A stretch of 41,991 nucleotides of DNA, taken from the NCBI GenBank assembly GCA_035469365.1, contig DATIRW010000268.1, positions 1 through 41,991 on the forward strand. The letters are read 5' to 3'. Below are positions 1-41,991 of the stretch, piece by piece. Both the position numbers and the translations under genes were made by a program. Under the pieces are notes generated by a model, which made no database searches, had not been told where the DNA came from, and saw nothing but the letters and a program-made list of their open reading frames with translations. The first letter of the stretch is position 1; each line of letters starts with the position of its first letter. This DNA is from Thermoanaerobaculia bacterium (GTDB lineage Bacteria; Acidobacteriota; Thermoanaerobaculia; UBA5066; Gp7-AA6).

Positions 1-204
1 AGCAAGCCCCAGCCGAACGCCTTCGGAGTACGGGGCGCTCCGACCGAAGAGCAGTTCCCTTGTGCGCTCAGCGCCTGCCCCCTGAGCACGAGGGTACCCC
101 TCGAACGGATGAGAGCGGATCCTTCGCTTTGCTCAGATGACAGGGAGAAAGAGTGAAGAGATGACAGACGTGGGGCCTGGGACGCTAGACCTTAGACGGG
201 AGAC

Positions 205-224
205 GGGCGGGGCAAGCCCCGCCC
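205..224 (-). terminator. GC-rich tetraloop hairpin immediately after the GT2-like gene stop
   Basis: GGGCGGGG-CAAG-CCCCGCCC, an 8-bp perfect stem that abuts the stop codon at 225-227. No clear U-tract. Confidence 0.4.
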
Positions 225-1649
225 CTACCGCGCCGCGGGGATTCCGGAGAGTCCGGCGGGAATTCCCGCGAGTCTTCTCTCCTCGGCGATCAGAGCCTTG
301 CGGAGCTCTTCCGGATCCTCTTCGACGGATTCGGCGAGGCCGGTGAAGGGAGCCTCGGTCAGGGCCTGGTGATAGCCGATCGAAGGCAGGCCGCCATCCC
401 GCAGCGCGTGAATGAGCTGGACGGTCTTCAAGGCGTCGAACCACGTGTGCAGGTGGCGAAGGAGAATCTCCTCGTCCTTCGAGAGGGTGAGGGCCTCCTG
501 GACGGCGTGAAACGCGCCCATCCGCTCGAGGGCCTCGGTCAACACGTCGGTCCGGAAGAAGGGAGTCGACGAAGGCAACTGCGCCAGGGGCGCACGCGCA
601 TCGCCGCCCGAGCTCGCGATCGCCGCGAGCACGCGGAGCCACGCGGCCAGGTGCGCGAACACCAGCGGGTGATAGAGCCGGAATCCCGAGAGCGCGCCGC
701 GCCGCGAGACGAGCCCTCCGATCGCCACTCCGGTGCTGATGGGGACGCGCTCGGAGATGCGGCCCTCGAGCATCAGCGGCAGGCCCGACAGTCGAAGGAT
801 CGAGCCGACCTTCGCGAGCTTGTTCAACGCATGGAAGTCCTCGAGAGCGTTGCGCCTTGGAAAGCCGCGCACTGCCGCGTAGGCCGCCGCGGGAATCGCA
901 AGGCAGCTTCCCATGCTGTGGTACGCGTAGGGCGATCCCGCCCATGCGAGGCCGAGCAGGTTGTAGCGCAGCGAGATCTCGTACAGGCGCGCCGCTTCCC
1001 CCTGCGCCGGGTCCGGGTCGAAGCGGTGCTCGAAGGCATAGATGGCCGCACCCGCAGTCTCCGCGTCGAGGGTTCGCGTCTGCTCGAAGTAGTCTCCCGG
1101 CAGCACGGTGTCGGCGTCCGTGTTGTGGATCCAGGGGGAGGCGACGCGACCCGCCGCGCGAAGAGCGAGTACTACGTCGTTGCCGATCTTGCGCGCGATG
1201 CCGACGCCCTGCCCCTCCGGAAGGAATTGTCCCGGGAGCGCGCGGTCGATGAGGAGCAATGTTCCGCCCCGGAGCGCGAAGTAGCGCGCGCGTGCCCCGG
1301 CGGAAAGCTCGGTCGCGGGCGCGAGTTCCCGCTCGAGACGCCGTCGGACTTCTTCGTTCGCCTCGTGGACGCCGGCGGGGGAGTCCCCTCGCGCGTTCAG
1401 GACGAGGACGATCAGGACCGGGCCCTCGGGGCTCCCCGGAACGGACCCGAGCAGCTGGAAGAGACTCTCCCGCTCGCCGTACGCGGGAATGACCAGGGCA
1501 TTGCCGCAGGCGCCGGGCAACTCCCCGGCCCACGCCGCCTCCGGCTCGGCGTGGCGAGCGAGATATTTGGCGACCGGGTCCTTCCTGTTCACTGGAAGTA
1601 CCCGAACACGTCGAAGAAGAACTCCGTGTTGCCGTAAGGCATGTCGCAC
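225..1649 (-). CDS. Glycosyltransferase family 2-like protein with an extra C-terminal domain
   Basis: 474-aa ORF. The N-terminal region (ALVIPAYGERE ... VLNARGD ... NTDADTVLPGDYF) resembles a GT-A/GT2 nucleotide-sugar fold with a DxD-like motif. A GC-rich hairpin follows the stop directly. The exact start is uncertain. Confidence 0.45.
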   Translation of the reverse strand: MRHALRQHGVLLRRVRVLPVNRKDPVAKYLARHAEPEAAWAGELPGACGNALVIPAYGERESLFQLLGSVPGSPEGPVLIVLVLNARGDSPAGVHEANEEVRRRLERELAPATELSAGARARYFALRGGTLLLIDRALPGQFLPEGQGVGIARKIGNDVVLALRAAGRVASPWIHNTDADTVLPGDYFEQTRTLDAETAGAAIYAFEHRFDPDPAQGEAARLYEISLRYNLLGLAWAGSPYAYHSMGSCLAIPAAAYAAVRGFPRRNALEDFHALNKLAKVGSILRLSGLPLMLEGRISERVPISTGVAIGGLVSRRGALSGFRLYHPLVFAHLAAWLRVLAAIASSGGDARAPLAQLPSSTPFFRTDVLTEALERMGAFHAVQEALTLSKDEEILLRHLHTWFDALKTVQLIHALRDGGLPSIGYHQALTEAPFTGLAESVEEDPEELRKALIAEERRLAGIPAGLSGIPAAR

Positions 1650-1886
1650 TGGACGGCGAGCTGGCCTCCAATCCCGAGCGGGACGACGGCGTTGTTGGCC
1701 CGGACGATACCGGGACGGACGTTGATGAGCACTCTGGGGATCCTACTAAAGGTCTAAGGTGTCCCGGCTGCGCCGGAGACGGTCCTGGAACTGCAGCGGC
1801 TGTTCAAGCTCTGACCCCTCTTCGGTCCGGTGGGCAGGGGTGTTTCGTCTCAGGCAGGCCATACCCGCGCAAACGCGGACCGACAG

Positions 1887-2456
1887 CTAGTGCAGCGCCG
1901 CGCGCGGCGGTAGGTCGGTGACGATGCGCGCTTCGGCTTCGAGTAACTCTTCCAGGCGCGCTTCCACCGGGGTCCGGTCGAAGTAGAGGAGCGCCAGACG
2001 GACGAAGAGATCCTGGTGCCGGGCCTCCGAGCGCGTGATGTCGCGGTAGAAGTCTTTCAGAGGGCCGGGGTGAAGAGCCGAGGCGATCAGGCCGAAGCGC
2101 TCGCATCCGCGCGCTTCGAGAATCCCGGCCACGAGCAGCCGGTCCAGGAAGTACGCGTCCGATCCCTTCCGGTACTCCTGCGAGAATCCGCGGACGTACG
2201 GGTCCTTCCGGTCGGCGCCGAGCGTCAATCCGCGGGCCGCCATGTGCGCGTACACCTGTTGGAAGTGCGCGAGCTCTTCTTGTGCGAGATCGATCATGGC
2301 CGGGACGAGCTCCTTGCGGTCGGGATAGTGCGAGACCATGTTCATCGCGCTGCCCGAGGCCTTGCGCTCGCAGTTGGCGTGGTCCTGCAGGAAGGAGTCG
2401 AAGTCGCGCAAAACCGCCTCGGTCCAGGCGGGGGAAGTGGGGATCTTTAATCGCAT
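1887..2456 (-). CDS. miaE: tRNA-(ms2io6A)-hydroxylase, ferritin-like di-iron protein
   Basis: 189-aa ORF with two ExxH di-iron motifs (QEELAHFQ, RSEARHQ). The overall pattern (DHANCERKA..., FLDRLLVAGIxEARGCERF) is typical of MiaE. Confidence 0.75.
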   Translation of the reverse strand: MRLKIPTSPAWTEAVLRDFDSFLQDHANCERKASGSAMNMVSHYPDRKELVPAMIDLAQEELAHFQQVYAHMAARGLTLGADRKDPYVRGFSQEYRKGSDAYFLDRLLVAGILEARGCERFGLIASALHPGPLKDFYRDITRSEARHQDLFVRLALLYFDRTPVEARLEELLEAEARIVTDLPPRAALH

Positions 2457-2462
2457 GTGAGC

Positions 2463-3340: not shown

Positions 3341-3408
3341 GGATATGAGTTTAGTGGCATCGGTCGCGCCCTCGCCCCTCCCCTCTCCCAGAGGGAGAGA
3401 GGGCTACC

Positions 3409-3436
3409 TTGGACATTGGACTTTGGACCTTGGACT
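3409..3436. repeat. Direct tandem heptamer array (TTGGACN)x4 abutting the amidohydrolase stop codon
   Basis: TTGGACA TTGGACT TTGGACC TTGGACT with exact 7-nt period. An imperfect CT/GA-rich hairpin CCCTCTCCC-AGA-GGGAGAGAGGG precedes it (about 3381-3403). Confidence 0.75.
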
Positions 3437-4725
3437 CACTTCGGCTGCGGCTTCACCACCTGCCCGCCCTTCATGACCCAGTCGATCTTCGAGAGGACGG
3501 AGACGTCTTTCAGCGGGTCGCCGGGGACTGCGACGAGGTCTGCGAAGGCGTCCTTTTCGACGACGCCGGCCTTGCCCTGCCAGCCGAGAAGCTCGGCCGC
3601 GACAGTCGTGGCGCTGCGGATCGCCTCGATCGGAGTCATGCCGAGCCTGACCTCGTGCTCAAACTCCCGAGCCTGGTTGATCTCGGTCCATGGGAATCCT
3701 CCCGCGTCCGTTCCGAAGGCGATCTTGACTCCGGCTTTGCGGCAGTTGGCGAGCGACTTCGCGTGGATCCTGGGAAGGTCGCCGCAGATGGCGCAGCCGG
3801 CCTGCGCCCGCGGCCCCGCGACGTAGGCCGCGACCGTCAGGGTCGGGGAGAGGAAGATCCCCTTGCGCGCCATCTCCTGCGCGGCCTCGGGGCGGATCGA
3901 GTCGCCGTGCTCGATGGAGTCCACGCCGGCGGCGATCGCGATTCTCACGCCGCTGTCGGAGCGGGCATGCGCCGAGACCTTGACGCGATGCGCGTGCGCC
4001 TCCGAGACGACGGCCTCGATCTCCTCCTTCGTCCAGTTGGGAGGCGAGTCCACATAGCCGTCTTCGGTGAGGCGCATTCCGCCGGTGTTGGCGTAGATCT
4101 TCACCCAGTCGGTGCCGTAGGAGAGCTGCTCGCGCACCGCCCTGCGGCAGGGGTCCGCGCCGTCGCAGACCTGGACTCCCACGGGAAAGACCCAGTCGGG
4201 GCGGAAGCGCGTGATGGGGTAACTCCCCGTCGTCGAGAGAGCGGGGCCGGCGACCCTCAGGCGCGGCCCCGGGATTACGCCCTCGTTGACGGCGTCCCGC
4301 AGCGCGACGTCGCCGTACGAAGCTCCCTCGGTCTCGAGGTCCCGAAGAGCCGTGAAGCCGTGCTCAAGCGCGATCTTCAGCGCCCGCACGGCGCGCGCCA
4401 CTCGGTGGGCCGGGTACTCCTGGAGGATCTGCTCGTGGTACTCGGGCGCCGTCGCGTCCCCCTGAAGGAGGATGTGCGTGTGCGCGTCGATCAGGCCAGG
4501 AAGGAGCGTCCGTTCGCCTAGGTCGATGACTTGAGCTCCCGCCGGAACGCGCGTCCCCACGCTCTCGACGATCCCGCCCTTGACCACGACGACCGGATTG
4601 GCGATATAGGCCCCTGTCTTCACGTCGAGCAGCCGCGCCGCCGTCACGGCCACGGCGCCCTCCTCCGCGCGGAAAGAAAGTGAGGCACACAGGAAGAACG
4701 TCAGGGAGACGACTGTCTTTCTCAT
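3436..4725 (-). CDS. Secreted metal-dependent amidohydrolase (COG1228-like, Xaa-Pro dipeptidase/imidazolonepropionase family)
   Basis: 429 aa. Hydrophobic signal-peptide-like N-terminus (VVSLTFFLCASLSF). LLPGLIDAHTHI metal-binding motif and GTDAG motif near the C-terminus. Confidence 0.8.
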   Translation of the reverse strand: MRKTVVSLTFFLCASLSFRAEEGAVAVTAARLLDVKTGAYIANPVVVVKGGIVESVGTRVPAGAQVIDLGERTLLPGLIDAHTHILLQGDATAPEYHEQILQEYPAHRVARAVRALKIALEHGFTALRDLETEGASYGDVALRDAVNEGVIPGPRLRVAGPALSTTGSYPITRFRPDWVFPVGVQVCDGADPCRRAVREQLSYGTDWVKIYANTGGMRLTEDGYVDSPPNWTKEEIEAVVSEAHAHRVKVSAHARSDSGVRIAIAAGVDSIEHGDSIRPEAAQEMARKGIFLSPTLTVAAYVAGPRAQAGCAICGDLPRIHAKSLANCRKAGVKIAFGTDAGGFPWTEINQAREFEHEVRLGMTPIEAIRSATTVAAELLGWQGKAGVVEKDAFADLVAVPGDPLKDVSVLSKIDWVMKGGQVVKPQPK

Positions 4726-4885
4726 AGGTCGAGTCTAGTTTAAGAATTCTTTTCGCGCGTAGGGGCGGGCCTCGCGCCCGCCCGCCTCTTCCCGACGCGC
4801 CGCGCGTGCGAGAACTGAGACGTTTGGATTCGTAACGCTTCCCACGATCCTGTCCACCGCCACTGGCACCCGGGCACGACGAGGC

Positions 4886-7572: not shown

Positions 7573-7659
7573 ATTAGGTGGTCGGCGTCAGGTGTTAGGT
7601 GATAGGGACCACGGCTGAGCCTTCCCTACCACCTACCACCTTCCACCGATCACCTATTC
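7573..7659. repeat. Heptamer-palindromic intergenic element (TAGGTGR / YCACCTA words)
   Basis: The left arm GGTGTTAGGTGATAGGGA (7591-7608) and the right arm TCCCTACCACCTACCACC (7623-7640) are complementary at 16/18 positions with a 14-nt loop. Flanking heptamers are GTCAGGT GTTAGGT GATAGGG and ACCTACC ACCTTCC ACCGATC ACCTATT. Confidence 0.8.
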
Positions 7660-8055: not shown

Positions 8056-8652
8056 CTAAACGGCCGGACGCTCTTCGTGCCGGCCCTCCTCGAACTCCTC
8101 GATCATCTTTCTGTTGAATGCCGGGATGTCGGCGGGCTTGCGGCTCGTGACGAGACCGTGGTCCACGACGACTTCCTCATCAATCCAGTTTGCCCCGGCG
8201 TTCTTCAGGTCCGTCCGGATCGACGGCCAGGACGTGACTCGCCGTCCCTTGACGGCGCCCGCCTCGATCAGCGTCCAGGGCCCGTGGCAGATCGCCGCGA
8301 CCGGCTTTCCCGAGGCGAAGAACGCCTTGACGAATCGAACCGCGGTCTCGTTCAGGCGGAGCTTGTCCGGATTCATGACGCCTCCGGGCAGGAGCAGCGC
8401 GTCGTAGCCGGCGGGGTCCGCCTCTTCCAGAGGGACATCCACGTCGAACAGGTCTCCCCACTCGACATGCTGCCAGCCGCGCACGGTCCCCTTCTCCGGC
8501 GAGATGATGTCGGCCCGCGCGCCCGCTTCTTCGAGCGCCTTCTTCGGGTCCGTCATCTCGACTTGCTCGAAGCCGTTCGCGACGAGAATCGCGACCCTCT
8601 TGCCTTCGAGAGAGTCGACAACGGTTTTCTTTCTGTTCATTTTGTTTTTCAT
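8056..8652 (-). CDS. DJ-1/PfpI family protein (type 1 glutamine amidotransferase-like, PfpI-type)
   Basis: DJ-1/PfpI motifs (RVAILVANGFEQVE, YDALLLPGG, nucleophile elbow AAICHGPW). The 331-aa track ORF has an Arg/Ala-rich N-terminal extension that looks spurious. An internal ATG at 8652 (or 8640) is preceded by GGAGG, so the start is uncertain by 12 nt. Confidence 0.85.
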   Translation of the reverse strand: MKNKMNRKKTVVDSLEGKRVAILVANGFEQVEMTDPKKALEEAGARADIISPEKGTVRGWQHVEWGDLFDVDVPLEEADPAGYDALLLPGGVMNPDKLRLNETAVRFVKAFFASGKPVAAICHGPWTLIEAGAVKGRRVTSWPSIRTDLKNAGANWIDEEVVVDHGLVTSRKPADIPAFNRKMIEEFEEGRHEERPAV

Positions 8653-8773
8653 CCTCCAGCCCGTTGTTCTGCCGGCCATCAACACCGTGGCCGGCTCATT
8701 GGTTCTCGCTGAAGATGCTCGAGCAAGAACCAAGCCTGACGATTCCGGATCGAGGCAGAAGCGAGGCGCAGCT

Positions 8774-9352
8774 CTAGCTCGCGCGCCGTCCCGTCGTCCG
8801 GTTGTGGACTCTGGCGGGAGAGAGACCGACGCTCCAGCTCTCGTCGCCCGCGTCAAGGCTGTTGGCTCCCGCGCGATCGAGAACGCGGCGAGCGGTCGCT
8901 TCCTGCCTGCCGCCGGAGGCGAAGGCGAAGACGACCGAGCGGCCCTTGCGAAGGGCCTCCTCGTAGAAGTAGATCTCGTCCTTGGGCAGGCCCGTCGAGA
9001 GCCTTTCATCCAGAACGCCGCCCGCGATAAAGCCGATCCCGGCTCCGACAATGGCGCAGAGAGCCGCGATGATCCAGGCAGTCAGGCCGAGCGCTCCCAT
9101 TCCTCCTTGCAGGACGGCCGAGAGGCCGAGGGCGAGTGCGAGTCCCACGACTCCTCCAACGACGGCGCCGACCGCTTTTCCCATGCCCGGCTGTTCTGTT
9201 TCGGTCGTGGGAATGGCTGAGTGGATTTCGCGCTCCGGGCTTCCGGGCGTCAGTTGCCGAATTCTTGCCGGCGGCACGCCGGCGTTGACGAGATCTCTGG
9301 TTGCGCGTTGCGCCGCAGCGGGGGAACTGAAAATCCCGACGACAGTTCTCAT
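8774..9352 (-). CDS. Membrane protein with an N-terminal general-stress (YflT/GSP17M-like) domain and Gly-zipper TM segments
   Basis: The start was moved to the ATG at 9352 (MRTVVGIFSS...), which has GGAGG 5 nt upstream. The central region is Gly/Ala-rich and hydrophobic (GAVVGGVVGLALALGL ... GAGIGFIAGGV). Confidence 0.5.
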   Translation of the reverse strand: MRTVVGIFSSPAAAQRATRDLVNAGVPPARIRQLTPGSPEREIHSAIPTTETEQPGMGKAVGAVVGGVVGLALALGLSAVLQGGMGALGLTAWIIAALCAIVGAGIGFIAGGVLDERLSTGLPKDEIYFYEEALRKGRSVVFAFASGGRQEATARRVLDRAGANSLDAGDESWSVGLSPARVHNRTTGRRAS

Positions 9353-9536
9353 GCATGCCTCCAAAACAAGACATTCTGAAAAAAGCAAGAAGCACGCCAG
9401 CGACCAACGCCGGTCGTCAATCTATAGCGCAAGCCAGGGACCGACGGCGAGGTCGTGAAGCCTCGGCAAATCCTCGGCGAACCCTCGGGACTTTGGGCGC
9501 CCTGTTCTCGTATAGACGCGGAAGGAGGAAACGATC

Positions 9537-12187: not shown

Positions 12188-12215
12188 GCGGCCCCGGCGG
12201 AACCGGCCAAGTAGT

Positions 12216-27489: not shown

Positions 27490-28629
27490 TCAATCGCGCC
27501 CGTGGATCTTCATGTCGACGAGCTCATCCACGGTGACGTCGTTGTGGCGCTCCTTCATCCTCTTGACGTAATCGATCGTGACGCCGTGGATGCGCATCGA
27601 GACGAGCTCCTCGACGGGCACGTGCCGGTAGCCGAGCTCCTGGAGCTTTCGGACGAACTCCGGCGACACTCCATGGATGCGCATGCTCACGAGCTCTTCG
27701 ACGGGCAGCCTCTCGTACCCGAGGTCCTTCATCTCCCGGACGAACTCCGGGTTGGCGCCGTGGATGCGCATGCTGACGAGGCCTTCGACGGGCAGCCGCT
27801 CGTAGCCCAGGGCCTTCAGCTCCCGAATGAACTCCGGGCTCGCGCCGTGGATGCGCATGCTGACGAGCTGCTCGACGGGCAGCCGGTCATAGCCCAGTGC
27901 CTTCAATTCTCGGATGAACTCGGGGCTCGCGCCGTGGATGCGCATGTTGATGAGCCCTTCGATGGGGAGATGCTCGTAGCCCAGGGCCTTCAGCTCCCGG
28001 ATGAACTGGGGGCTCGCGCCGTGGATGCGCATGTTGATGAGCCCTTCGACGGGGAGATGCTCGTAGCCCAGGGCCTTCAACTCCCGGATGAACTCCGGGC
28101 TCGCCCCATGGATCCGCATCGAGATGAGGCGCTCGGCCGGAAGGCGCTCGTAGCCGAGCGAGCGCAGTTCATCGAGGAACTGACGGCTGACGTCGTGCAT
28201 CGTGAACGAAAACGACTCGTCCGGCCCGAGGCTCGAGTAACCGAGCGATCTCCAGTACTTGTCGAACTCGGGATTGGCGGCGAACTGGAAGCGGCCGGAG
28301 CCGCCCAACTCGTCCAGCTCCCCGTCGAAGCGGATCGTCCCGGCGTCCCGCGCCATCTCGAAATGCGCCGGCCGCGCGGCCTTTCCAGCCGGGCGGGAGA
28401 GGCCGCGGAAGTCGGCCAGGGAGTAGGAGGACGAGTTGTTCCAGTCTCCATGCGAGGAACTGCGCCGGATGGTGAGCTGAACGCGGCCGTCTTCCCTGTC
28501 GAAGTCGAGCAGCCATCGCCCCTCGAAGGTCTGTCCCGGCGCCGGCGTGGGCGCTGCGAGGAGGAGCGAAAGCAGGATTGCGAGGACGATCCCGCTGGGA
28601 CGCAACAGTGGTGTCCGGTGCCTGGTCAT
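27490..28629 (-). CDS. Secreted protein with an N-terminal unknown domain and 7-8 tandem 29-aa RIHG repeats (paralogue of the C-terminal domain of the adjacent M56 protein)
   Basis: The ATG at 28629 has GGGAGG 5 nt upstream and overlaps the upstream stop (ATGA). The signal peptide is MTRHRTPLLRPSGIVLAILLSLLLAAPTPAPGQ. The repeats are of the type LPVEGLxSMRIHGASPEFIRELKALGYEx. The protein ends ...VDMKIHGRD. Confidence 0.8.
   Translation of the reverse strand: MTRHRTPLLRPSGIVLAILLSLLLAAPTPAPGQTFEGRWLLDFDREDGRVQLTIRRSSSHGDWNNSSSYSLADFRGLSRPAGKAARPAHFEMARDAGTIRFDGELDELGGSGRFQFAANPEFDKYWRSLGYSSLGPDESFSFTMHDVSRQFLDELRSLGYERLPAERLISMRIHGASPEFIRELKALGYEHLPVEGLINMRIHGASPQFIRELKALGYEHLPIEGLINMRIHGASPEFIRELKALGYDRLPVEQLVSMRIHGASPEFIRELKALGYERLPVEGLVSMRIHGANPEFVREMKDLGYERLPVEELVSMRIHGVSPEFVRKLQELGYRHVPVEELVSMRIHGVTIDYVKRMKERHNDVTVDELVDMKIHGRD
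27493..28215. repeat. Tandem 87-bp coding repeats (29-aa RIHG repeats), 7-8 copies
   Basis: The word GTGGATGCGCAT or a close variant recurs at 27586, 27673, 27760, 27847, 27934, 28021 and 28108, exactly 87 nt apart. Units 27934-28020 and 28021-28107 differ at only about 6 of 87 positions by manual alignment. Confidence 0.9.
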
Positions 28630-30716
28630 CGATTCCTCCCATGAATCCGCCTGGAAACGAGCTCGTCGATCGAGAGCCGCGCGCCGGCGGATGCGTTGGC
28701 CTTGCGGATGAACTCGGGCGTGGCGCCGTGGATGCGCAGGGCGGTGAGCTCGTCGACCGAAGGGGCGGCGTATCCGAGCGACTGGACCTCCTTGACGAAG
28801 TCGGGCGTGACGCCGTGGATTCGGCAGGCGACGGCATCGTCGGTGGAGAGTTTCGTGTATCCGAGCGAACGCATGTCGCGGACGAACTCCGGCGTGACGC
28901 CATGGATGCGCAGGCCGACGAGGGCGTCGAGGTCCGCGTCGAGCCCGAGCGAGCGCATCTCGCGCGCGTACTCCGGCGTGGCGCCGTGGATCCGCGCCGA
29001 CACGATCTCGTCGAGGCCGGGCTTGCGGCCGGTGATGGTCGCCCATTGTGTCGCGTCGTCCGGATCGACGCCGTGAATCCGAAGAGAGACGGCGTCGTCG
29101 GCCGAGATCTGCGGATATCCCGCCTCGTGGAAGTGCCGCACGAACTCGGGCGTGACTCCGTGGATTCGGAGCGAGACGATCTCATCGAGCGACTGCTTCC
29201 CGATGAGCGCCGTCATCTCCGAGACGTATTCCGGAGACACGCCGTGGATCCTGAGCGCGAGCAGGTCCTGGACCGTGGCCTGCTTGAAGCCGAGTGCGGC
29301 GAGCGCCGCGAGGAACTCGGGCGTGACGCCGTGCCGGCGCAGGCTGGCCAGGTCCTCGGGAGAGAGTCTGACCTCACTCTGCGCGGATGCCGTCTTTTTT
29401 TCTTCGCCGTCCGCTTCGACGCCTCCCTCGATGCCGCCGGAGACGCCGCCCCCAACGCCCTCTTCGACGCCTCCGGAAACGCCTCCCGCGATCCTGCCCG
29501 CGACGCCCGACACCCGGGCCGCGCGCCGGGCGGCGGTCACCGGATTCTCCTTTTGCAGGCGGGGGGTTTGCGCGGCCGGCACGGCATTCGTGGGCTCGGC
29601 CGGAGGGACTGGCAAGCCGACCGCGACGGCCGGCGAGTCTTCGAAGAAGGACGAGCGCTCCGCGGCCCCGACCGTGGCGACCATCGCCAGGGCGAGGAGC
29701 CCGGCGAGCCACCTCGGGGCGTCCTCGGCCAGCGAAGGGGATGGGAAGGAGGAAGCCGGCATCAGCCTCGCGACGCGCCGCCAGAGGGAAGCGCCGTCGG
29801 CCGCCACCGCCGGGCCGGGTGCCGCCAGCCGCGGAGCGCGGATCTCCTCGAGTACGACCAGGGCGCGGACGTATCCACGGGAGTCTCCGGTCGCGACGAC
29901 GGCCAGGTCGTCGCAGCAGTTCTCCCTTTCGATCCGGATCCGGCGGGAGACCCACCAGACGGCCGGATGGTAGAAGAGGAGCGTCTCCGCCGCCGTCTGC
30001 AGCAGGTTGACGAGGTAGTCGTGCCGGCGGATGTGGGCGAGCTCGTGAGCGAGCACCGCCTCGATCGCCTCCGGTGACAGGCCCGTGACGGCGCACGCGG
30101 GCAGGAGGATCGCCGGGCGCAGGACGCCGAGCGCCGTCGAAACGCTCACTCGCAACGACTCCAGGAGAAGGACCGGGCGTCGAACGCCGAGCCGGTCGCG
30201 AAGAAGCCCGAGAACGGCCTCCAGGGCCGCGGGCACGGGGCGGACGCCCTTGAGCGGGAGTCTCCGTGCGGCATTCCATCCGGCGAGGAACCGCGCCGAA
30301 AGCAGGAAGACACCGCACAGCCATGCCGGCACGATCCACGGTGCGAGCCACGCCGCGCTCGCCTGGAAGGCGCGCGCGATCCGTCCGGATTCGGGAGCGG
30401 CGCCGGCCCACACCCGCTTCGCGGCTAAATCGTGACGCAAGGGCTCTCCGGCCGGGGCCGGGGAGACGCCGACAGGGGCGGAACGAGGGGCCGGGGACTC
30501 GCGGTGGCCCAGATAGGTGACGGCCGGCAGGAGCACCATCAGCAGCAGAGCCGCGCAGCCGGCGGCGTAGCGCGCTCGAGGATCCCTCCGGGAGAGCAGG
30601 GCGTTGACGCAGGACAGAATCGCGGCGACGAGCGTTCCCTGCCAGAGAAAGGCGGCCAGCGCCCAGCCGAGCCTCCGGAAAGCCGGGGTCGCGAACAACA
30701 GGGCCAGGTCTTTCAT
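28626..30716 (-). CDS. BlaR1/MecR1-like M56 family membrane metalloprotease signal transducer with a non-canonical C-terminal repeat sensor domain
   Basis: 696 aa with several N-terminal TM helices. The zinc motif is HELAHIRRHD with a downstream ENCCDD. A further TM follows, then a Gly-rich linker (GGVSGGVEEGVGGGVSGGIEGGVE). About 9 repeats of the type xLRIHGVTPEFV... then end in RIHGRNR. No penicillin-binding domain is visible. Confidence 0.85.
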   Translation of the reverse strand: MKDLALLFATPAFRRLGWALAAFLWQGTLVAAILSCVNALLSRRDPRARYAAGCAALLLMVLLPAVTYLGHRESPAPRSAPVGVSPAPAGEPLRHDLAAKRVWAGAAPESGRIARAFQASAAWLAPWIVPAWLCGVFLLSARFLAGWNAARRLPLKGVRPVPAALEAVLGLLRDRLGVRRPVLLLESLRVSVSTALGVLRPAILLPACAVTGLSPEAIEAVLAHELAHIRRHDYLVNLLQTAAETLLFYHPAVWWVSRRIRIERENCCDDLAVVATGDSRGYVRALVVLEEIRAPRLAAPGPAVAADGASLWRRVARLMPASSFPSPSLAEDAPRWLAGLLALAMVATVGAAERSSFFEDSPAVAVGLPVPPAEPTNAVPAAQTPRLQKENPVTAARRAARVSGVAGRIAGGVSGGVEEGVGGGVSGGIEGGVEADGEEKKTASAQSEVRLSPEDLASLRRHGVTPEFLAALAALGFKQATVQDLLALRIHGVSPEYVSEMTALIGKQSLDEIVSLRIHGVTPEFVRHFHEAGYPQISADDAVSLRIHGVDPDDATQWATITGRKPGLDEIVSARIHGATPEYAREMRSLGLDADLDALVGLRIHGVTPEFVRDMRSLGYTKLSTDDAVACRIHGVTPDFVKEVQSLGYAAPSVDELTALRIHGATPEFIRKANASAGARLSIDELVSRRIHGRNR
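28629..29351. repeat. More divergent 84-87-bp coding repeats encoding ~9 RIHG repeats at the C-terminus of the M56 protein
   Basis: The protein-level repeats are LRRHGVTPEF, LRIHGVSPEY, LRIHGVTPEF, LRIHGVDPDD, ARIHGATPEY, LRIHGVTPEF, CRIHGVTPDF, LRIHGATPEF and RRIHGRNR, spaced 28-29 aa apart. Confidence 0.85.
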
Positions 30717-31105: not shown

Positions 31106-31124
31106 CGGCGTTCCATCCTCGTCA

Positions 31125-31154
31125 TACGAAGAAACTAGTACGAAGTTTTTCGTA
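31125..31154. promoter_or_regulatory. Candidate BlaI operator: TACGAA half-site (31125-31130) plus the palindrome TACGAA-GTTT-TTCGTA (31139-31154)
   Basis: This is an AT-rich patch in a GC-rich genome, 20-50 bp upstream of the repressor start codon. The palindrome is perfect (6+4+6). It is reminiscent of the TACA/TGTA dyads bound by BlaI/MecI/CopY repressors. Confidence 0.5.
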
Positions 31155-31160
31155 TATCAA
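31132..31160 (-). promoter_or_regulatory. Candidate sigma-70 promoter of the blaI-like operon
   Basis: The minus strand reads TTGATA (31160-31155), a 17-nt spacer, then TAGTTT (31137-31132). The spacer contains the TACGAA/TTCGTA palindrome. Confidence 0.4.
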
Positions 31161-31164
31161 GGCA

Positions 31165-31305
31165 AAAGGTGTCAGGGGACGGGTATCAGGGAAAAGGCAG
31201 GTATCAGGTGCCAGGTATCAGGGGTCAGGGACAGAGCTCCGAACCTGGCACCTGACCCCTGATACCTGAAACCTGCTCCCCTGACCCCTCCGACCTGACA
31301 CCTTC
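31165..31305. repeat. Heptamer-palindromic element in the divergent blaI-like / spermidine-synthase-like promoter region
   Basis: CAGG recurs every 7 nt on the left arm and CCTG every 7 nt on the right arm. A 16-bp perfect inverted repeat pairs GGTATCAGGGGTCAGG (31214-31229) with CCTGACCCCTGATACC (31251-31266). An outer 11-bp inverted repeat pairs AAGGTGTCAGG (31167-31177) with CCTGACACCTT (31294-31304). Confidence 0.85.
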
Positions 31306-31331
31306 CCCCTGTGTTAACGTCCCTCATCTCC

Positions 31332-34300: not shown

Positions 34301-34607
34301 CGACGCCGCCCTCGCCGGACGTCTCGAGGAGTCCCTCGCCCATCCCTTCTCCCTCTTCCTGCTCGATGAGGAGCGCCACCTGATCCGCCTCGAGGTTGCC
34401 TCGCGCCTGGATGCCTCGCGGTACGCGCGGGCCGTGGAGGAGATGGAGCCGGACGTTCCCTGGCGCCGGCCGATCCTGGAGCGCCGCGCGCAGGCCTACA
34501 CGGCGACGGGGAACTCCCGCGCGCCGGTCGCGCGGCGGGAGTTCGCGAAGTTCATGGAGAAGGAGCCGCCGCCGTTCAGGCCCGAAACCGCTCCCCGGAA
34601 GAACTAG
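31332..34607 (+). CDS. Fused polytopic membrane / spermidine synthase-like (PABS) / TPR-like protein
   Basis: About 1091 aa from the ATG at 31332 (the GTG at 31311 is also possible). There are many TM helices. A SAM-fold GLGTGSTAGW and DVIFSEPSNPYRAGISSLFT match spermidine-synthase-like proteins. The C-terminal region is helical-repeat. Confidence 0.75.
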   Translation: MKRRILWVALLLFGSGTTALIYQVAWMRDLRLIFGFSTAASAAVVAIFMGGLGAGSWWLGRKADETAHPLAFYGRLELAVAGSAAVTPLLVFLVRQGYIAVGGTLTLGLVGGTVARLLFSAIVLCVPTVLMGGTLPAATRAVETDEDSGRRYLALLYGSNTIGAVTGAVLSTFLLLETFGTRLTLWLACAVNALVGLAAVRLSRRAAPAPVPEKAPEDSRPGIPDSRSGQMPQRKEKHKRMPKREEAAPGPPAPLPGGRSRVRGFVLASAGIVGFAFFLMELVWYRMLAPLLGGSTYTFGLILAIALAGIGTGSAVYWLAGRGKVATLSGFAATCALEPLCLIVPYALGDRLALLAALLRPIGAFGFGGYVAGWSLVAGLVVFPAALVAGFQFPLLIALLGQGRERVGSDVGIAYAWNTMGGIAGSLAGGFGLLPLLSATGTWVFVAVLLCALALLALLLFGRAGGAAPARGSGNRGRILLALGAVAACVILLLVAPGPTAAWRHSPVGAGRVDLGKPSPNSLHDWLRGRRRILAWEKDGVESSVALLKASDGYAFVISGKTDGSSRGDAATQVMGGLIGAALHPNPRRGLVIGLGTGSTAGWLAAVPSIERVDVVELEPAILRVARDCAQVNHDVLGNSRVRIWIGDAREWLLASRETYDVIFSEPSNPYRAGISSLFTTDFYRAMRSRLAPGGIFLQWLQAYEVDSGTVRTVYATLGSVFPEVETWHTKQSDLILAATMEPITYDGGRLRERLRQEPYLSALRDAWRVSELEGFLSHYVARSSLTRTLITSGHTPLNTDDANVVEFAFARSLGHDTFFDVEELRQAARSSQEDRPNVSGEVDWAAVNRCRVAAATSQGRPPTATAGMTVEELRQALAQKSFVEGRPEAVLTNWRAGPWEPRGSIEEIVLAEALAQGGEELAVDYIERVRQRRGVEADVLLARLRWRQGRLEEAVQALERAFQAYREDPWPLAVLVRNSFSVVLDIASRDAALAGRLEESLAHPFSLFLLDEERHLIRLEVASRLDASRYARAVEEMEPDVPWRRPILERRAQAYTATGNSRAPVARREFAKFMEKEPPPFRPETAPRKN

Positions 34608-34838
34608 TACTCCGTATCGATTCGAAGTGATCGTCGCGGAAAATCCGCCCCAGAGCCGGCGTCGTTTGCTGCGTCGGCACGCACCGGCCTGCCGTGATGG
34701 AGAGAACCGGCCGGTGCTGAGGGTTCCTCGCAGTCTCACCGAGGTGCCGGTCGCACTCTTCCATGCTCGTCACCCATCACCTCCTTCGGAAAACGCCGCC
34801 GGCTCCGGGGCTCTCCGTCCGGCTTGGACCGACGTGAA

Positions 34839-34864
34839 GGGCCGGAGACAGGACCCGCCGGCCC
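34839..34864 (-). terminator. Possible folD terminator hairpin
   Basis: GGGCCGG-N12-CCGGCCC, about 40 nt downstream of the folD stop. It is followed on the minus strand by TTCAC, a weak U-tract. Confidence 0.3.
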
Positions 34865-34904
34865 GGATTCTCGCGACCGCAATTCCGGCGTTAGAGAGAG
34901 CGAG

Positions 34905-35935: not shown

Positions 35936-36016
35936 TACGCGCCCTCAAACAGGGTCGGGGGATGAGCCTGCCTCAGGCTCGCGCGCCGGTTTCGTTGAAT
36001 TAAGGAGTCCGGTTTC

Positions 36017-36475: not shown

Positions 36476-36492
36476 GAAGCTGAGGAGGAACA

Positions 36493-36888: not shown

Positions 36889-36893
36889 CAACC

Positions 36894-36980
36894 AAGGTGG
36901 TGGGTGATAGGTGGACGGTGGCAGGGACGAGGGCTCTCGGGCCTTCCCTGACACCTGATACCTGACACCTGACACCTAAC
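36894..36980. repeat. Heptamer-palindromic element between rpsI and rpsB
   Basis: The left arm is AAGGTGG TGGGTGA TAGGTGG ACGGTGG CAGGGAC, followed by a 15-nt loop. The right arm is TTCCCTG ACACCTG ATACCTG ACACCTG ACACCTA. The period is exactly 7 nt on both arms. Confidence 0.85.
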
Positions 36981-36996
36981 TATAAGGAGGTGTGAT

Positions 36997-37779
36997 CTGG
37001 CATCTATTTCGATGAAGGAACTGCTCGAGGCTGGCGTCCACTTTGGTCATCAGACCAAGCGCTGGAACCCGAAGATGAAGAAGTTCATCTTCGGGAAGCG
37101 CAACGGGATCTACATCATTGACCTTCAGAAGACGCTCAAGCAGTTCAAGGAAGCCTCGAAATTCGTCACGGAGCTGGCCGCGCAGGGGAAGAATCTCCTC
37201 TTCGTCGGCACCAAGCGCCAGGCGCAAGACGCGATCTACGAGGAGGCCAACCGCTGCGGGATGTTCTACGTGAACACGCGGTGGCTCGGCGGCACGCTGA
37301 CCAACTTCTCGACGATCCGCAAGTCCATTCACCGCTTGAAGGAGATCGACGGGATCCTCGCCCAGGAGGACAACGAGAACCTGACCAAGAAAGAGCGGCT
37401 GCGGCTGGAGCGCGAGAAGGAGAAGCTCGAGAAGAACCTGACCGGGATCAAGGAAATGGACGAGCTACCCGACGCGCTGTTCGTCATCGACCCGAAGCAG
37501 GAGTACATCGCGGTCAAGGAGGCGAACATCCTCGGCATCCCGGTCGTCGCTGTGGTGGATACCAATTGCGACCCCGACGTGATCGACCACGTGATTCCGG
37601 GCAACGACGACGCCATCCGGGCGATCCGGCTGTTTACGTCGCGCGTCTCGGACGCGGTGCTGGAAGGGCTGCACGCCCACGAGGAGCGTGGCGCGGCGAG
37701 CGAGGCGGGTTCCGAGGAATCGAGGCCGCGCACGCCCGAGCTCTCCACGACCGCAGTCGTTTCGGACGTCGCCTCGTAA
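36997..37779 (+). CDS. rpsB: 30S ribosomal protein S2 (probable CTG start)
   Basis: The track ORF starts at the ATG at 37012 ([22 protein letters not shown]). The in-frame CTG at 36997 lies 6 nt after AAGGAGG (36984-36990). It yields (M)[12 protein letters not shown], which aligns with the canonical S2 N-terminus MAxVSM. Confidence 0.9.
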
Positions 37780-37868
37780 GTAAGGTCTGAAGTCTAAGGT
37801 CTATGGTCTGAGGTCCGGTCTCGGGGTCGATTGACCTTAGACTTTAGACATTAGAGCTTAGACAGCTC
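37776..37868. repeat. Heptamer-palindromic element between rpsB and tsf (TRAGGTC / GACNTTA words)
   Basis: The left arm is TAAGGTC TGAAGTC TAAGGTC TATGGTC TGAGGTC. The right arm is GACCTTA GACTTTA GACATTA GAGCTTA GAC. A 12-bp perfect inverted repeat pairs AAGTCTAAGGTC (37790-37801) with GACCTTAGACTT (37833-37844). Confidence 0.85.
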
Positions 37869-37881
37869 TCGTAGGGGAACC

Positions 37882-38778: not shown

Positions 38779-38806
38779 GGACCCGAGCCCGGGAGCCTTG
38801 AGAAGA

Positions 38807-39532: not shown

Positions 39533-39536
39533 GGCC

Positions 39537-40091
39537 ATGCGGCAGGAACTCAAAGACATCGAACAGCACATGAACGGCGCGATCGCGCATTTGAAGGACC
39601 GCTTCAAGACGCTGCGGACGGGCCGCGCGAACCTCGGAATCCTCGACGGGATCCTCGTGTCGGCCTACGGCGCCGACGTGCCGATCAACCAGGTGGCCAA
39701 CCTCTCGGTCCCCGAGCCGACTCTCATCGTGGCTGCGCCATGGGACCCCAAGATGTCGGGAGAGATCGAGCGCGCGATCCGCAAGTCGGACCTGGGATTG
39801 AACCCGCAGTCGGACGGGAAGATCGTGCGCATTCCGATCCCGTCCCTGACGGAGGAGCGCCGCAAGGAGCTCGCGAAGAAGGCCCACCACATGGCCGAGG
39901 AAGCGCGCGTTGAGATCCGGCGCTTCCGCCACGAGGGGAACGACCGGATCAAGAAGATGTTCAAGGAGAAGCAAATTTCCGAGGACGACGAGCGGCGCGG
40001 CCTGGAGGAATCCCAGAAGCTGACAGACAAGAAGATCGCCGAGGTGGACGAGCTCCTGAAGAACAAAGAAAAGGAGATCATGGCTGTCTAA
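39537..40091 (+). CDS. frr: Ribosome recycling factor
   Basis: An internal ATG at 39537 gives a 184-aa product. LRTGRANLGILDGILV, NPQSDGKIVRIPIPSLTEERRKEL. Confidence 0.92.
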   Translation: MRQELKDIEQHMNGAIAHLKDRFKTLRTGRANLGILDGILVSAYGADVPINQVANLSVPEPTLIVAAPWDPKMSGEIERAIRKSDLGLNPQSDGKIVRIPIPSLTEERRKELAKKAHHMAEEARVEIRRFRHEGNDRIKKMFKEKQISEDDERRGLEESQKLTDKKIAEVDELLKNKEKEIMAV

Positions 40092-40131
40092 GTGGTCGGG
40101 GGACCTTGCGGTTCACCCGAACCCCCAGGCC

Positions 40132-40166
40132 GATTTTGGATTTTCGATTTTGGATTCTGGATTGAG
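40132..40166. repeat. Tandem heptamer array GATTTTG GATTTTC GATTTTG GATTCTG GATTGAG upstream of ispD
   Basis: Exact 7-nt period, read directly. It sits between the frr stop (40091) and the ispD Shine-Dalgarno. Confidence 0.75.
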
Positions 40167-40187
40167 GAGACCGGGATCGCATCCTTC

Positions 40188-40835
40188 TTGATTGTCGTGG
40201 CGGCAGGATCGGGCAGCCGGCTGGGACGGCCCGAGCCGAAGGCGCTGGTCCCTGTTTTCGGGAGGCCGCTTCTTTCCTGGACGCTCGAGGCTCTTTCGTC
40301 GCTCTCCTTCGCGGGAACGGTCGTCGCGGCGCCCCCCGGAAGGCTCGACGAGATCCGGGCTCTGGTGGGAGACGGGTCCAAGGTGGTCGAAGGTGGAGAA
40401 ACCCGTGCCGCCTCGGTTCGCAACGCCTTCCAGGCTTGCGGCGCCGGCGGACGCCACCTCGTTTGCATCCACGACGCGGCGCGTCCCTTCGTGACCCCCG
40501 TTGAAGTCGCGGCCATCCTGCGGGCGGCCGAGGAAGGCGGCGTGGCGATCGCCGCGACGCCGATTCCCGATACGGTCAAGAAGCTGGAGAAGGGCCGGAT
40601 CGCGGCCACGCTCGACCGGACGAACCTCTGGGCCGCGGGGACTCCGCAAGTTTTTCGGGCCGAGCTGCTCGCCCGGGCGCTCGAGTCCGGCGACGAGGCG
40701 ACCGATGAGGCCGCTCTCTGCGAAACGCTCGGCATTCCCGTCGCGGTCGTGCCGGTCTCGCGGCTCGGTTTCAAGATCACGACGCCGGAAGACCTGGAAA
40801 TCGCCGAAGCCATCCTGAGAGGCCGCGTTCGATGA
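40188..40835 (+). CDS. ispD: 2-C-methyl-D-erythritol 4-phosphate cytidylyltransferase
   Basis: Motifs VVAAGSGSRLG, IHDAARPFV and KITTPEDL. The start is uncertain: TTG 40188, GTG 40197, or a non-canonical ATC 40176 lying 6 nt after GAGGAG. The track start GTG 40092 would translate a heptamer repeat element. Confidence 0.85.
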   Translation: MIVVAAGSGSRLGRPEPKALVPVFGRPLLSWTLEALSSLSFAGTVVAAPPGRLDEIRALVGDGSKVVEGGETRAASVRNAFQACGAGGRHLVCIHDAARPFVTPVEVAAILRAAEEGGVAIAATPIPDTVKKLEKGRIAATLDRTNLWAAGTPQVFRAELLARALESGDEATDEAALCETLGIPVAVVPVSRLGFKITTPEDLEIAEAILRGRVR

Positions 40836-41356
40836 ATCGAAGCCAGCGCGTCGGGATCGGCTTCGACGCGCATCCCTTCTCGGAGGGGCGCGCGTTGAGG
40901 CTGGGAGGCGTCGAGATCCCGCACCCGCGCGGACTGAGAGGGCACTCCGACGGAGATGCGCTGCTGCATGCCATCGCGGACGCAGTGCTCGGAGCGGCCG
41001 GTCTCGGGTCTCTGGGCGAGCAATTTCCCGACGACGATCCTTCCTGGAAGGGGGCCGACAGCGCGCTCTTCGTGACGCGCGCCCGCGACCTTGCAGTCGG
41101 GCGCGGTTTCGAGGTGGAGAACCTGGACGCCGTTGTGATCACCGAAGTCCCGAGGCTCGCACCCCATGTCGGAGAGATCCGCCGGCGCCTCGCCGCGCTT
41201 CTCGGCGTCGATGCCGGCGCCGTCAGCGTCCGCGGCACCAGTTCCAACGGCCTCGGCTTCACCGGCCGCGGAGAGGGCATCGCCGTCATGGCCGTCGTTC
41301 TTCTCGTTGGCCGACCCGATCACGAATCACAAATCACAAGCCACGAATCCAAATGA
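40832..41356 (+). CDS. ispF: 2-C-methyl-D-erythritol 2,4-cyclodiphosphate synthase
   Basis: 174 aa. GIGFDAHPF, GHSDGDALLHA. ATGA overlap with ispD. The C-terminal tail ...DHESQITSHESK is encoded by a heptamer repeat element. Confidence 0.9.
   Translation: MNRSQRVGIGFDAHPFSEGRALRLGGVEIPHPRGLRGHSDGDALLHAIADAVLGAAGLGSLGEQFPDDDPSWKGADSALFVTRARDLAVGRGFEVENLDAVVITEVPRLAPHVGEIRRRLAALLGVDAGAVSVRGTSSNGLGFTGRGEGIAVMAVVLLVGRPDHESQITSHESK
41318..41356. repeat. Tandem heptamer array GATCACG AATCACA AATCACA AGCCACG AATCCAA at the ispF 3' end (opposite word orientation to 40132-40166)
   Basis: Exact 7-nt period. It encodes the ispF C-terminal tail and contains the ispF stop / next-gene ATG overlap. Confidence 0.7.
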
Positions 41357-41991
41357 TCCTATCCCGCCTGAATCCGATCGCCGAGGCGATCCGGTCCCGC
41401 CCGCGGCAGGTCGAGTGGGGGATGTTTGACTCCGGACGTCGCGACCGGCGGATCAACGAGTTGAAGAGGCTCTGCCGCGCCGCTGCCGTGTCGGTTCGGT
41501 ACGGCGGGGCAGGAGCCCTCGACCGCCTCGCCCGCGCCAACCAGGGGGCGGTGGCGCGGCTGGCCGTCCGCGAGTACCGCCCTGAGGAGGAAGCGCTGGC
41601 AGGCGAGACGGGTCAACGCTTTCTCCTCGTGCTCGACGAGATCCAGGACCCCCAGAACCTGGGAGCCGTCCTTCGGGTCGCGGAGGGGCTCGGGGCGCGG
41701 GTGGTGCTGCCGGAACGAGGGTCTGCTCCACTCTCGGAGGCCGTGGAGAGAGCCTCGGCCGGAGCGGTCGAACGGGTGCCGGTCATCCGGGTCACCAACC
41801 TTCGAAGATTTCTGGATCTCATTAAGGATAAGGGGTTTGTCGTCGTGGGTCTGGACGCCGACGGCTCCGATCTCTTCGGTATGGACCTGACGGGAGACCT
41901 GGCGCTCGTCCTTGGCGCCGAGGGCAAGGGAATGCGCCGCCTGGTGCGGGAAGGGTGTGACTTCCTGGCACGGATACCCATGAAAGGGGCG
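41353..41991 (+). CDS. TrmH/SpoU-family RNA 2'-O-methyltransferase (RlmB-like), 3'-truncated by the window end
   Basis: My own translation from the ATG at 41353 (ATGA overlap with ispF) is open to the window end. It reads MILSRLNPIAEAI...LVLDEIQDPQNLGAVLRVAEGLGA...LALVLGAEGKGMRRLV..., which carries SpoU methylase motifs. Confidence 0.85.
   Translation, partial: MILSRLNPIAEAIRSRPRQVEWGMFDSGRRDRRINELKRLCRAAAVSVRYGGAGALDRLARANQGAVARLAVREYRPEEEALAGETGQRFLLVLDEIQDPQNLGAVLRVAEGLGARVVLPERGSAPLSEAVERASAGAVERVPVIRVTNLRRFLDLIKDKGFVVVGLDADGSDLFGMDLTGDLALVLGAEGKGMRRLVREGCDFLARIPMKGA

Follow-up and report, generated by a model that had tools for sequence, protein, structure and literature searches.

The 41,991-nucleotide stretch of DNA from a soil Thermoanaerobaculia bacterium analyzed here in full (contig DATIRW010000268.1, below the window) carries hairpins built of heptamer repeats that are real, densely placed and quick to evolve, located almost entirely in the spacers between its genes. 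Nine arrays of tandem, degenerate 7-nt words occupy 759 nt, about 27% of the spacer bases of the window. Six of them, E1 to E6, are built from inverted arms that form long imperfect hairpins, and three are single-arm arrays. A strong array is present in seven of the 21 spacers of at least 25 nt, and an eighth array lies in the tail of the ispF open reading frame (ORF). These elements are heptanucleotide simple-sequence repeats of the STRR or long simple-sequence-repeat kind, a kind that is known and poorly understood. Between strains whose neighboring genes are nearly identical, the words are rewritten, the numbers of units change and whole elements are present or absent.

The periodicity is specific to 7 nt and far exceeds expectation. 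Tandem Repeats Finder returned period-7 arrays starting at 2502, 2648, 2681, 3409, 7625, 31198, 31243, 36947, 37781, 37833, 40132 and 41319, with copy numbers of 2.6–8.6; every locus named in the preliminary description of this DNA, which was made from the letters alone, is thereby recovered with the words given there. In an autocorrelation of the window over lags 2–15, period 7 alone yields 35-nt intervals with at least 26 matches. The window and its close relatives, pooled to 315 kb with some contigs being near-duplicates of the window, contain 67 period-7 segments against 0.45 in local shuffles, which is the outcome of the periodicity scan that the preliminary description had proposed as its check. 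The other periods from 4 to 12 give 0–16 segments each in the same pool, and their non-zero counts fall on multiples of three, which we take to be coding repeats. An outgroup of 1.56 Mb of unrelated loci holds 21 period-7 segments, a density about 16-fold lower, and the eleven species-representative genomes alone give about 125 segments per Mb, the outgroup 15. The arrays have a GC (guanine plus cytosine) content of 0.55, as compared with 0.68 for the window. They behave as long simple-sequence repeats do, being head-to-tail repeats of units within the 5–11-nt range and longer than composition predicts, with a unit whose length is not a multiple of three and which is mainly non-coding. Apart from the ispF tail and an overlap of E2 onto the last codons of coaE, they are confined to spacers. 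Beyond the position that matches the right end of the window, L081, a contig from the window's species group, has three more elements, so the phenomenon is not limited to the window.

The hairpins E1–E6 have imperfect stems of 30–50 bp. Their RNA folds have z scores of −4.1 to −7.6, with none of 200 shuffles folding equally well, and folding of four elements with DNA parameters gives z scores of −5.4 to −7.1. The helices are 5–6 bp long, with an interruption roughly every 7 nt, since the two arms do not match at the degenerate positions of their words. As each element is an inverted array of one word and its complement, either strand is able to form the 30–50-bp hairpin. Perfect inverted repeats, noted previously within single elements, are confirmed with one of 12 nt, and the fold of 31160–31309 includes an uninterrupted helix of 18 bp. 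An element usually begins a few bases past a stop codon and extends up to the next ribosome-binding site or start codon. The carrying spacers are co-directional in six cases and divergent in one, while the two convergent spacers on the gene map of the window (34608–34904 and 12188–12215) have no element; the statement that tandem, divergent and convergent gene pairs are served alike thus holds for the first two arrangements only. Nor do the elements form one family, as had been supposed, since at least five unrelated word families are found in 42 kb. Shared termini and a shared apex are properties of the CAGGTRY/TAGGTGR group alone: five CAGG/TAGG-type elements in the window, and more in L081, share AAGGTG...CACCTW at their outer ends and CAGGGAC...TTCCCTG at the apex. 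The apex AGGGAC...CTTCCCT that had been reported for several loci is complete in E3 (7604–7627) and E5 (36923–36949) and partial in E1, E2 and E4, with 2516–2522 and 31226–31232 holding only its CAGGGAC half. In our view it is no motif in its own right but the final heptamer unit together with its complement.

E1 and E2 share the spacer between coaE and miaE, both on the − strand. The CAGGTRY/RYACCTG array that was previously described there as one locus (2463–2746) is real and forms two hairpins, not one. E1 (2464–2603; −64.3 kcal/mol, z −4.4) has an outer stem that stops 8 nt from the miaE start codon, and E2 (2620–2746; −60.6 kcal/mol, z −4.1) extends onto the last coaE codons. The right arm of E1 (2555–2590) is complementary to the left arm of E2 (2639–2666) over 28 nt at 82%, with a perfect 12-mer, and the two elements could refold as one alternative central hairpin. 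E3 (7575–7657; TAGGTGR/YCACCTA, z −7.6) occupies the entire 88-nt spacer from the stop codon of the PRC-barrel gene to the start of the pyridine-nucleotide-disulphide oxidoreductase gene on the − strand. E4 (31166–31305) is the largest, a CAGGNNN/NNNCCTG hairpin of about 50 bp with 18 uninterrupted pairs (−86.3 kcal/mol, z −6.7), located in the divergent spacer between the blaI-like and spermine-synthase-like genes; its ortholog in L081 is at 4096–4192. To its left, immediately upstream of the blaI-like gene and distinct from E4, is a palindrome (ATACGAAGAAACTAGTACGAAGTTTTTCGTAT, 31115–31150) that is probably a BlaI/MecI-type operator. No strand was assigned to E1–E4, whereas E5 and E6 are on the + strand. 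E5 (36895–36977; NNGGTGG/ACACCTG, z −5.4) extends from the rpsI stop codon to a conserved leader of rpsB. E6 (37781–37867; TRAGGTC/GACNTTA, z −4.9) fills the rpsB-tsf spacer, beginning right behind the rpsB stop codon and ending 14 nt ahead of the tsf start.

The inverted arms attributed to the arrays in general are found in these six elements; no second arm occurs close to the arrays at 3409, 40132 and 41319. Four units of TTGGACN (3409–3436, no strand assigned; 3.9 copies, 90% matches) lie between the amidohydrolase stop and the coaE start, and a related word makes a full hairpin in the frr-ispD spacer of a relative (L009). GATTTTG (40132–40166, + strand, 4.6 units) is placed between frr and the ispD start, a TTG at 40188, and its last unit runs into a GAGGAG Shine-Dalgarno-like sequence. 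GC-rich simple hairpins stand directly upstream of both arrays, at 3380–3403 (CCCCTCTCCC...GGGAGAGAGGG) and 40096–40126 (GTCGGGGGACC...CCCGAACCCCC). The third array, five units of AATCACR (41319–41354, + strand), forms the C-terminal tail of the ispF ORF, where it is read as the last 16 codons, past the end of the YgbB domain at residue 158, and it ends at the ATGA overlap with the gene for a SpoU-type methyltransferase. The elements are therefore mostly, not wholly, intergenic. Two-unit relics of the TAAGGTC word, given no strand, lie downstream (181–201, in reverse orientation) and upstream (1748–1761) of the glycosyltransferase-like gene. Taken one by one these short copies, which the preliminary description had listed, are marginal; as a group they stand out, since the window has five matches to a TAAGGTC dimer besides those in the main element, where chance would give 0.6 over its full length. 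The two relics flank one gene in inverted orientation. Likewise, the GATTTTG array and the related AATCACR array flank ispD-ispF in the window, and in L089 a GATTTTG and a CAAAATC array (8805–8837 and 9311–9357), which are reverse complements, flank ispF alone. Such pairs could be long-range inverted arms or coincidence.

The ribosomal gene string shows how these elements change. The order rplM-rpsI-rpsB-tsf-pyrH-frr-ispD-ispF is kept in all close relatives, with spacers as short as 46 nt, so that orthologous spacers can be compared. Among contigs encoding an identical S2 protein, rpsB nucleotide identity is 95.7–99.6%, and the rpsB-tsf spacer nevertheless holds three unrelated heptamer hairpins (in the window, in L081, and in L084, L086, L087 and L088). 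Over the whole clade its words include TAAGGTC, AGTCCKT, GTGAGTC, GTTGAGA, CAGCTNT, GGTTCTC, CAGTTCT and GGAATCG, and in some genomes the stem is GC-rich and non-periodic, whereas in others it is a heptamer hairpin. Yet 24 of the 29 distinct sequences fold with z below −2, which suggests that a hairpin, whatever its sequence, is the conserved feature of this spacer. In the rpsI-rpsB interval some genomes have a heptamer hairpin, L006 has a single-arm array, and most other relatives have a short spacer free of arrays. E5 is present in L081–L083, L085, L087 and L091 and absent from L084 and L086 despite the same S2 protein; its unit order differs among the window, L081 and L087. Between variants, everything in the spacer ahead of the ribosome-binding site is swapped. 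What hardly changes is the 34 nt immediately upstream of rpsB (36978–37011, TAAGGAGGTGTGATCTGGCATCTATTTCG), near-invariant in L001–L011 and L081–L104 while the remaining spacer is replaced. This leader includes an extended Shine-Dalgarno sequence nearly complementary to the usual 3' end of 16S rRNA; it has no Rfam match and may be an S2 autoregulatory leader.

Changes in length come in heptamer steps. Arms differ by 7, 14 or 21 nt among contigs with identical S2 protein, and in the group that uses AGTCC words at rpsB-tsf (L084, L088, L086 and L087) the spacers measure 110, 103, 82 and 82 nt with right arms of 7, 6, 4 and 4 units and gaps of 7, 14 and 14 nt. Words also shift with distance and position: the array ahead of the SpoU-type methyltransferase gene changes from AATCACR to AAAATCC (L089, L011) and to GAAATCC (L003) as the distance grows, and is absent in L002 and L009, while the GATTTTG word sits between ispD and ispF in L089, not ahead of ispD as in the window. 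Within one genome the words are more alike than between genomes (permutation p ~0.005). The CAGG family with its CAGGGAC apex is found at six or more loci and only in the window's species group, L090 uses GTTGAGA in both spacers flanking rpsB, and L003 has GAAATYC at four loci. A look-up of the miaE protein for strains in which E1 and E2 could be compared returned no identical protein on record. Outside the clade, heptamer arrays also occur near rpsB (L021, L063, L023, L078, L127, L128, L167), the hosts of outgroup arrays being Thermodesulfovibrionales, Sumerlaeales, another Acidobacteria lineage, Omnitrophota and metagenome contigs; the Omnitrophota array is an inverted pair, AAGTTNT/ANAACTT. 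This suggests that heptamer arrays are scattered over many phyla.

We tentatively favor, at somewhat less than even confidence, the reading that the elements are transcribed stem-loops of spacers which act as sequence-independent determinants of RNA processing or stability and are renewed by 7-nt slippage. The sequences themselves establish the anatomy, the enrichment, the polymorphism and the turnover of words; transcription, processing, the effect on expression and the mechanism of origin are what we infer. A short inverted repeat would seed the arms, and each arm would gain or lose 7-nt units by slipped-strand mispairing; arms that are arrays of complementary words, with indels of 7 nt, fit such independent slippage in each arm. 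Homogenization would keep the words of an element alike, ectopic conversion or copying would carry them from one locus of a genome to another, and the replacement of whole elements would outpace the divergence of the flanking genes. Most elements sit within strings of co-directional genes and would therefore be transcribed, and transcription appears likely from the absence of a terminator consensus in the elements, the location of the only sigma-70-like match near the ribosomal genes upstream of rplM, and the conserved synteny. As RNA stem-loops in intercistronic spacers and 5' untranslated regions, they could set the relative expression of neighboring cistrons, most plausibly as cleavage sites for a double-strand-specific (RNase III-type) nuclease or as barriers to 3'-exonucleases, a functional reading motivated by the hmw case of Haemophilus influenzae described below. 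At the level of base pairs, eight of 11 changes among E5 orthologs that fall at paired positions preserve the pair as G-U in the sense strand, which is suggestive, although a strand-biased transition bias could also give them. For E5 and E6 of the window the sense fold is more stable than the antisense fold, with five G-U pairs against none.

Several observations weigh against this reading. The sense fold is more stable than the antisense fold in only 23 of 43 cases, which does not establish general selection at the RNA level; the palindromes may just as well have a role as DNA, or simply originate there. With the units of the right arm permuted, the elements fold about as well as in the native order, the arms not being mirrored unit by unit. 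Covariation is sparse and confounded by register slippage, as the arms of E6 and of the AGTCC group slip register, and the orthologs of E3 have too few changes for such an analysis. E3 has, moreover, kept a constant 88 nt in ten strains (the window and nine contigs with identical PRC-barrel protein, four sequence variants in all) with no change in unit number. The three arrays without a partner arm and the position of E4 in a divergent promoter region do not fit easily either, and the period of 7 is left unexplained. A bolder version, in which a dedicated self-renewing system keeps the 7-nt period and the inverted arms while words are rewritten and spread faster than synonymous change in the neighboring genes, seems improbable. 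If true, it would imply an active generative mechanism, candidates being repeat expansion coupled to transcription and RNase III, at which the Haemophilus case hints, and an enzyme that recognizes 7-nt-periodic hairpins. The elements would then be evolvable intercistronic processing sites, a new class of bacterial repeat element and a handle on the question "why 7".

A neutral by-product of mutation is a possible explanation though one that we doubt. Heptamers, which in many bacteria slip unusually readily, would expand where selection tolerates them, that is in spacers, both arms would be seeded by small inverted repeats already there, and the arrays would have no function of their own. In its favor, the words seem arbitrary and differ from one close relative to the next, arms grow or shrink by multiples of 7 nt, orthologous spacers may have or lack an element, and the outgroup loci include comparable arrays from unrelated phyla; the lack of a sense-strand bias and of unit-by-unit mirroring agrees with it, and the literature ascribes heptamer excess to polymerase slippage (Mrazek 2007, as cited in PMC4679880 and PMC4692102). 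Against it stand the recurrence of one word, with its apex and termini, at many places in a genome, the stable rpsB-tsf hairpin kept across the clade regardless of sequence, the exact fit between stop codon and next ribosome-binding site and the excess over the outgroup loci. The recurrence of words and ends would be at home in a different and rather unlikely account, non-autonomous mobile elements (REPIN- or miniature inverted-repeat-like) copied into spacers by an enzyme encoded elsewhere in the genome. The outer AAGGTG...CACCTW, the inner units and the CAGGGAC/TTCCCTG apex of the CAGG family recur at six or more loci of one species group, E5 comes and goes among contigs encoding identical S2 protein, the entire spacer upstream of the ribosome-binding site is exchanged between variants, and the GTTGAGA word of L090 occupies both spacers beside rpsB. 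However, fixed ends are not visible, and no target-site duplication is seen around E1–E6. The empty sites of relatives differ over the whole spacer, so that element boundaries are not definable. The copies have no shared core of at least 20 nt, having in common only their heptamer words, the AAGGTG/CACCTW ends and the CAGGGAC apex, with loops of unlike sequence and length; the number of units is not constant, some arrays have only one arm, and Pfam scans and gene tables reveal no transposase, RAYT included, in the window or in the flanks examined in relatives.

Binding sites for sequence-specific proteins, which on DNA could be a nucleoid protein or global regulator and on RNA a protein of the cold-shock, S1 or CsrA type, have been proposed for the heptamers of Geobacter, Beggiatoaceae and Nostoc (PMC2700814, PMC4679880, bioRxiv 10.1101/2022.06.06.494920). 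Here too, words recur at several loci within a genome, arrays abut the starts of the ispD, SpoU-type methyltransferase, miaE and oxidoreductase genes, and the arrays are AT-rich islands in a GC-rich genome. Nonetheless, at least five unrelated words in 42 kb would need as many factors, and the replacement of the word at one spacer between strains with near-identical flanking genes is hard to square with a conserved pair of regulator and site, which leaves little room for this explanation. The resemblance to Shine-Dalgarno sequences, which had been put forward as speculation, gives even less. It would have AGGTG arms sequestered by anti-Shine-Dalgarno-like CACCT arms to control initiation, and it is real for one word family: the CAGGT/TAGGTG words hold AGGTG and CACCT (as in GATCACCT at 7648–7655), and no ribosome-binding site separates the hairpin from the start codon at miaE or at the oxidoreductase gene. 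But this is a property of one word family out of five or more in the window, the words of relatives at the same spacers (TAAGGTC, AGTCCKT, GTGAGTC, GTTGAGA, CAGCTNT and others) lack it, and rpsB and tsf retain their own ribosome-binding sites outside the hairpins, so that the idea is very improbable. Intrinsic (Rho-independent) terminators or attenuators, which strong stem-loops behind stop codons call to mind, are the least credible of all. No T-run follows any element and no terminator consensus is found inside one, as the preliminary description had also concluded in calling the elements not simply terminators; AT-rich stems of 30–50 bp are unlike those of terminators, and one element lies in a divergent promoter region.

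Searches for known families and signals gave little. No Rfam family matched at gathering score in the window, so the match to a described family that might have accounted for the elements did not appear; an E-value search returned only sub-threshold microRNA-precursor models on E4, which were judged spurious, E4 being a generic long hairpin. The only promoter-like match inside an element, a weak one at 2466–2493, is regarded as chance. The quadruplex pattern of four or more in-phase tracts of at least three G is not found inside the elements. Tandem dimers of the described STRR words CCCCAGT, TTGGTCA and CAACAGT do not occur in the window in any rotation on either strand, and the Geobacter consensus MTYCTGA is not among the element words, the nearest, CCCCTGA and ACCTGAY, being different. 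CRISPR was dropped as there is no spacer-repeat structure, H-DNA or triplex as the arms are not homopurine mirror repeats, and telomerase-like templated addition as nothing supports it.

The gene map of the window was built from Pfam scans. The left part has, on the − strand, a glycosyltransferase-like gene, miaE, coaE, and genes for an amidohydrolase, a glucoamylase-like protein, the pyridine-nucleotide-disulphide oxidoreductase, the PRC-barrel protein and DJ-1. The middle is densely packed with transporter and two-component-system genes and is followed by blaR-blaI, the spermine-synthase-like gene and folD, and the right part, on the + strand, is rplM-rpsI-rpsB-tsf-pyrH-frr-ispD-ispF and the SpoU-type methyltransferase gene. 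The closest matches of the S2 protein, at 90–95% identity, are the S2 proteins of metagenome-assembled genomes labeled Acidobacteriota or Thermoanaerobaculia. At 8056–9454, an arrangement of a 331-residue DJ-1 ORF with a 403-nt spacer is ruled out by the gene calls of contigs with the identical PRC-barrel protein; these show a DJ-1 of 194–198 residues, then a 192-residue protein without a Pfam match, a 162-residue 2Fe-2S ferredoxin subunit and a molybdopterin enzyme. Adjoining blaR-blaI, the − strand ORF 27490–29046 contains an 87-nt tandem repeat (27582–28119; 6.2 copies, 83% matches; 6.6 copies at 484–1057 of L081) that encodes 29-residue protein repeats with a consensus of about GASPEFIRELKALGYERLPVEGLISMRIH. 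The protein has no Pfam match, and its true start is likely the signal-like sequence MTRHRTPLL. In the spacer between the spermine-synthase-like gene and folD, scored as convergent above, a possible small ORF of about 55 codons (MEECDRHLGETARNPQ...) at 34600–34764 on the − strand has a strong ribosome-binding site, AAGGAGGTGAT, ahead of it.

Heptamer repeats drew attention in cyanobacteria from 1990 onward and subsequently in Xanthomonas, Geobacter and Beggiatoaceae, and they have no accepted function and no explanation for the period of 7. The present lineage is unusually dense and tractable, as roughly a quarter of its spacer bases are heptamer arrays and public metagenomes hold graded, near-identical strains in which the same spacer has different words, different unit numbers or no element. 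Whether the hairpin rather than the word is selected, whether the arms change by slippage and whether the elements are RNA processing sites become testable questions. For annotation, long heptamer hairpins should be taken for neither terminators nor small-RNA genes, and arrays can be absorbed into the ends of ORFs, as in the tail of ispF.

Among known systems, the palindromic REP and REPIN sequences of Proteobacteria are similar in being imperfect spacer hairpins of about 70–140 nt that form species-specific families with presence/absence polymorphism. REP hairpins stabilize upstream mRNA in operons. They differ in having a conserved core of at least 20 nt and a cognate RAYT transposase, whereas the present elements have an internal 7-nt periodicity and no conserved core. 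Heptanucleotides are reported to be the most abundant class of long simple-sequence repeats in many prokaryotes, and the footprint of the polymerase has been proposed as an explanation of their slippage (Mrazek 2007, as relayed in PMC4679880 and PMC4692102). The cyanobacterial STRR are, like the elements of the window, mostly intergenic tandem heptamers at many loci with lineage-specific words, and the analogy drawn in the preliminary description is apt to that extent; they differ in their words (CCCCAGT, TTGGTCA and CAACAGT), in being described mostly as direct arrays rather than hairpin pairs and in their hosts, heterocystous cyanobacteria, as opposed to Acidobacteriota (Mazel 1990 and Mrazek 2007, as summarized in the same two papers). 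Some GGGAATC repeats of Xanthomonas are convergent inverted pairs, and at a given spacer the repeats differ from one related species to another. Together with the GGGGAYT repeats of Nostoc they are G-tract arrays with quadruplex potential (PMC4692102), a pattern missing from the elements of the window, although three relatives (L004, L005 and L098) use GGGAATC-like words as Xanthomonas does. The TAACTGA heptamers of marine Beggiatoaceae, for which a translational role was proposed, form short arrays right upstream of start codons, including those of ribosomal-protein operons, much as the single-arm arrays do before ispD and the SpoU-type methyltransferase gene; they involve a single word with one inverted pair among 170 sets (PMC4679880).

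The only experimentally worked-out case found in the literature is hmw1A of Haemophilus influenzae. According to that study, the (ATCTTTC)n repeat upstream of the gene is part of the transcript and supplies one arm of a long hairpin in the 5' untranslated region that is cut by RNase III, and a change in repeat number needs the hairpin, transcription and RNase III (PMC12721329). The likeness lies in a heptamer repeat that serves as the arm of a long hairpin and varies in unit number between strains. In hmw1A, as described there, the other arm is a G-rich non-repeat and the setting is a contingency locus of a pathogen rather than a genome-wide spacer feature, and both the processing by RNase III and the effects on expression are experimental results, whereas for the elements of the window they are suggested by analogy. 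The closest architectural precedent is that of the paired heptamers of Geobacter metallireducens, filed as class 3 of its 'global regulator binding sites', with eight pairs of opposite-strand sites of five tandem heptamers each, one pair within the proBA operon, all absent from G. sulfurreducens (PMC2700814). As in the window's lineage, about five tandem heptamers are paired as inverted arms at variable distance, occupy spacers that include those within operons (proB-proA), and are species-specific, being absent from the sister species at the same spacer. The Geobacter sites differ in having one word (MTYCTGA) and eight pairs per genome, as compared with many word families at a far higher local density here, and binding of an IHF/HU-type protein was proposed for them (PMC2700814). 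The searchable literature offered no equivalent for Acidobacteriota, in agreement with the preliminary description. Inverted pairs of tandem heptamers are thus not new in kind, having been described in Xanthomonas and Geobacter metallireducens (PMC4692102, PMC2700814); what is new is the comparative picture, in which the words of such elements turn over rapidly between close relatives.

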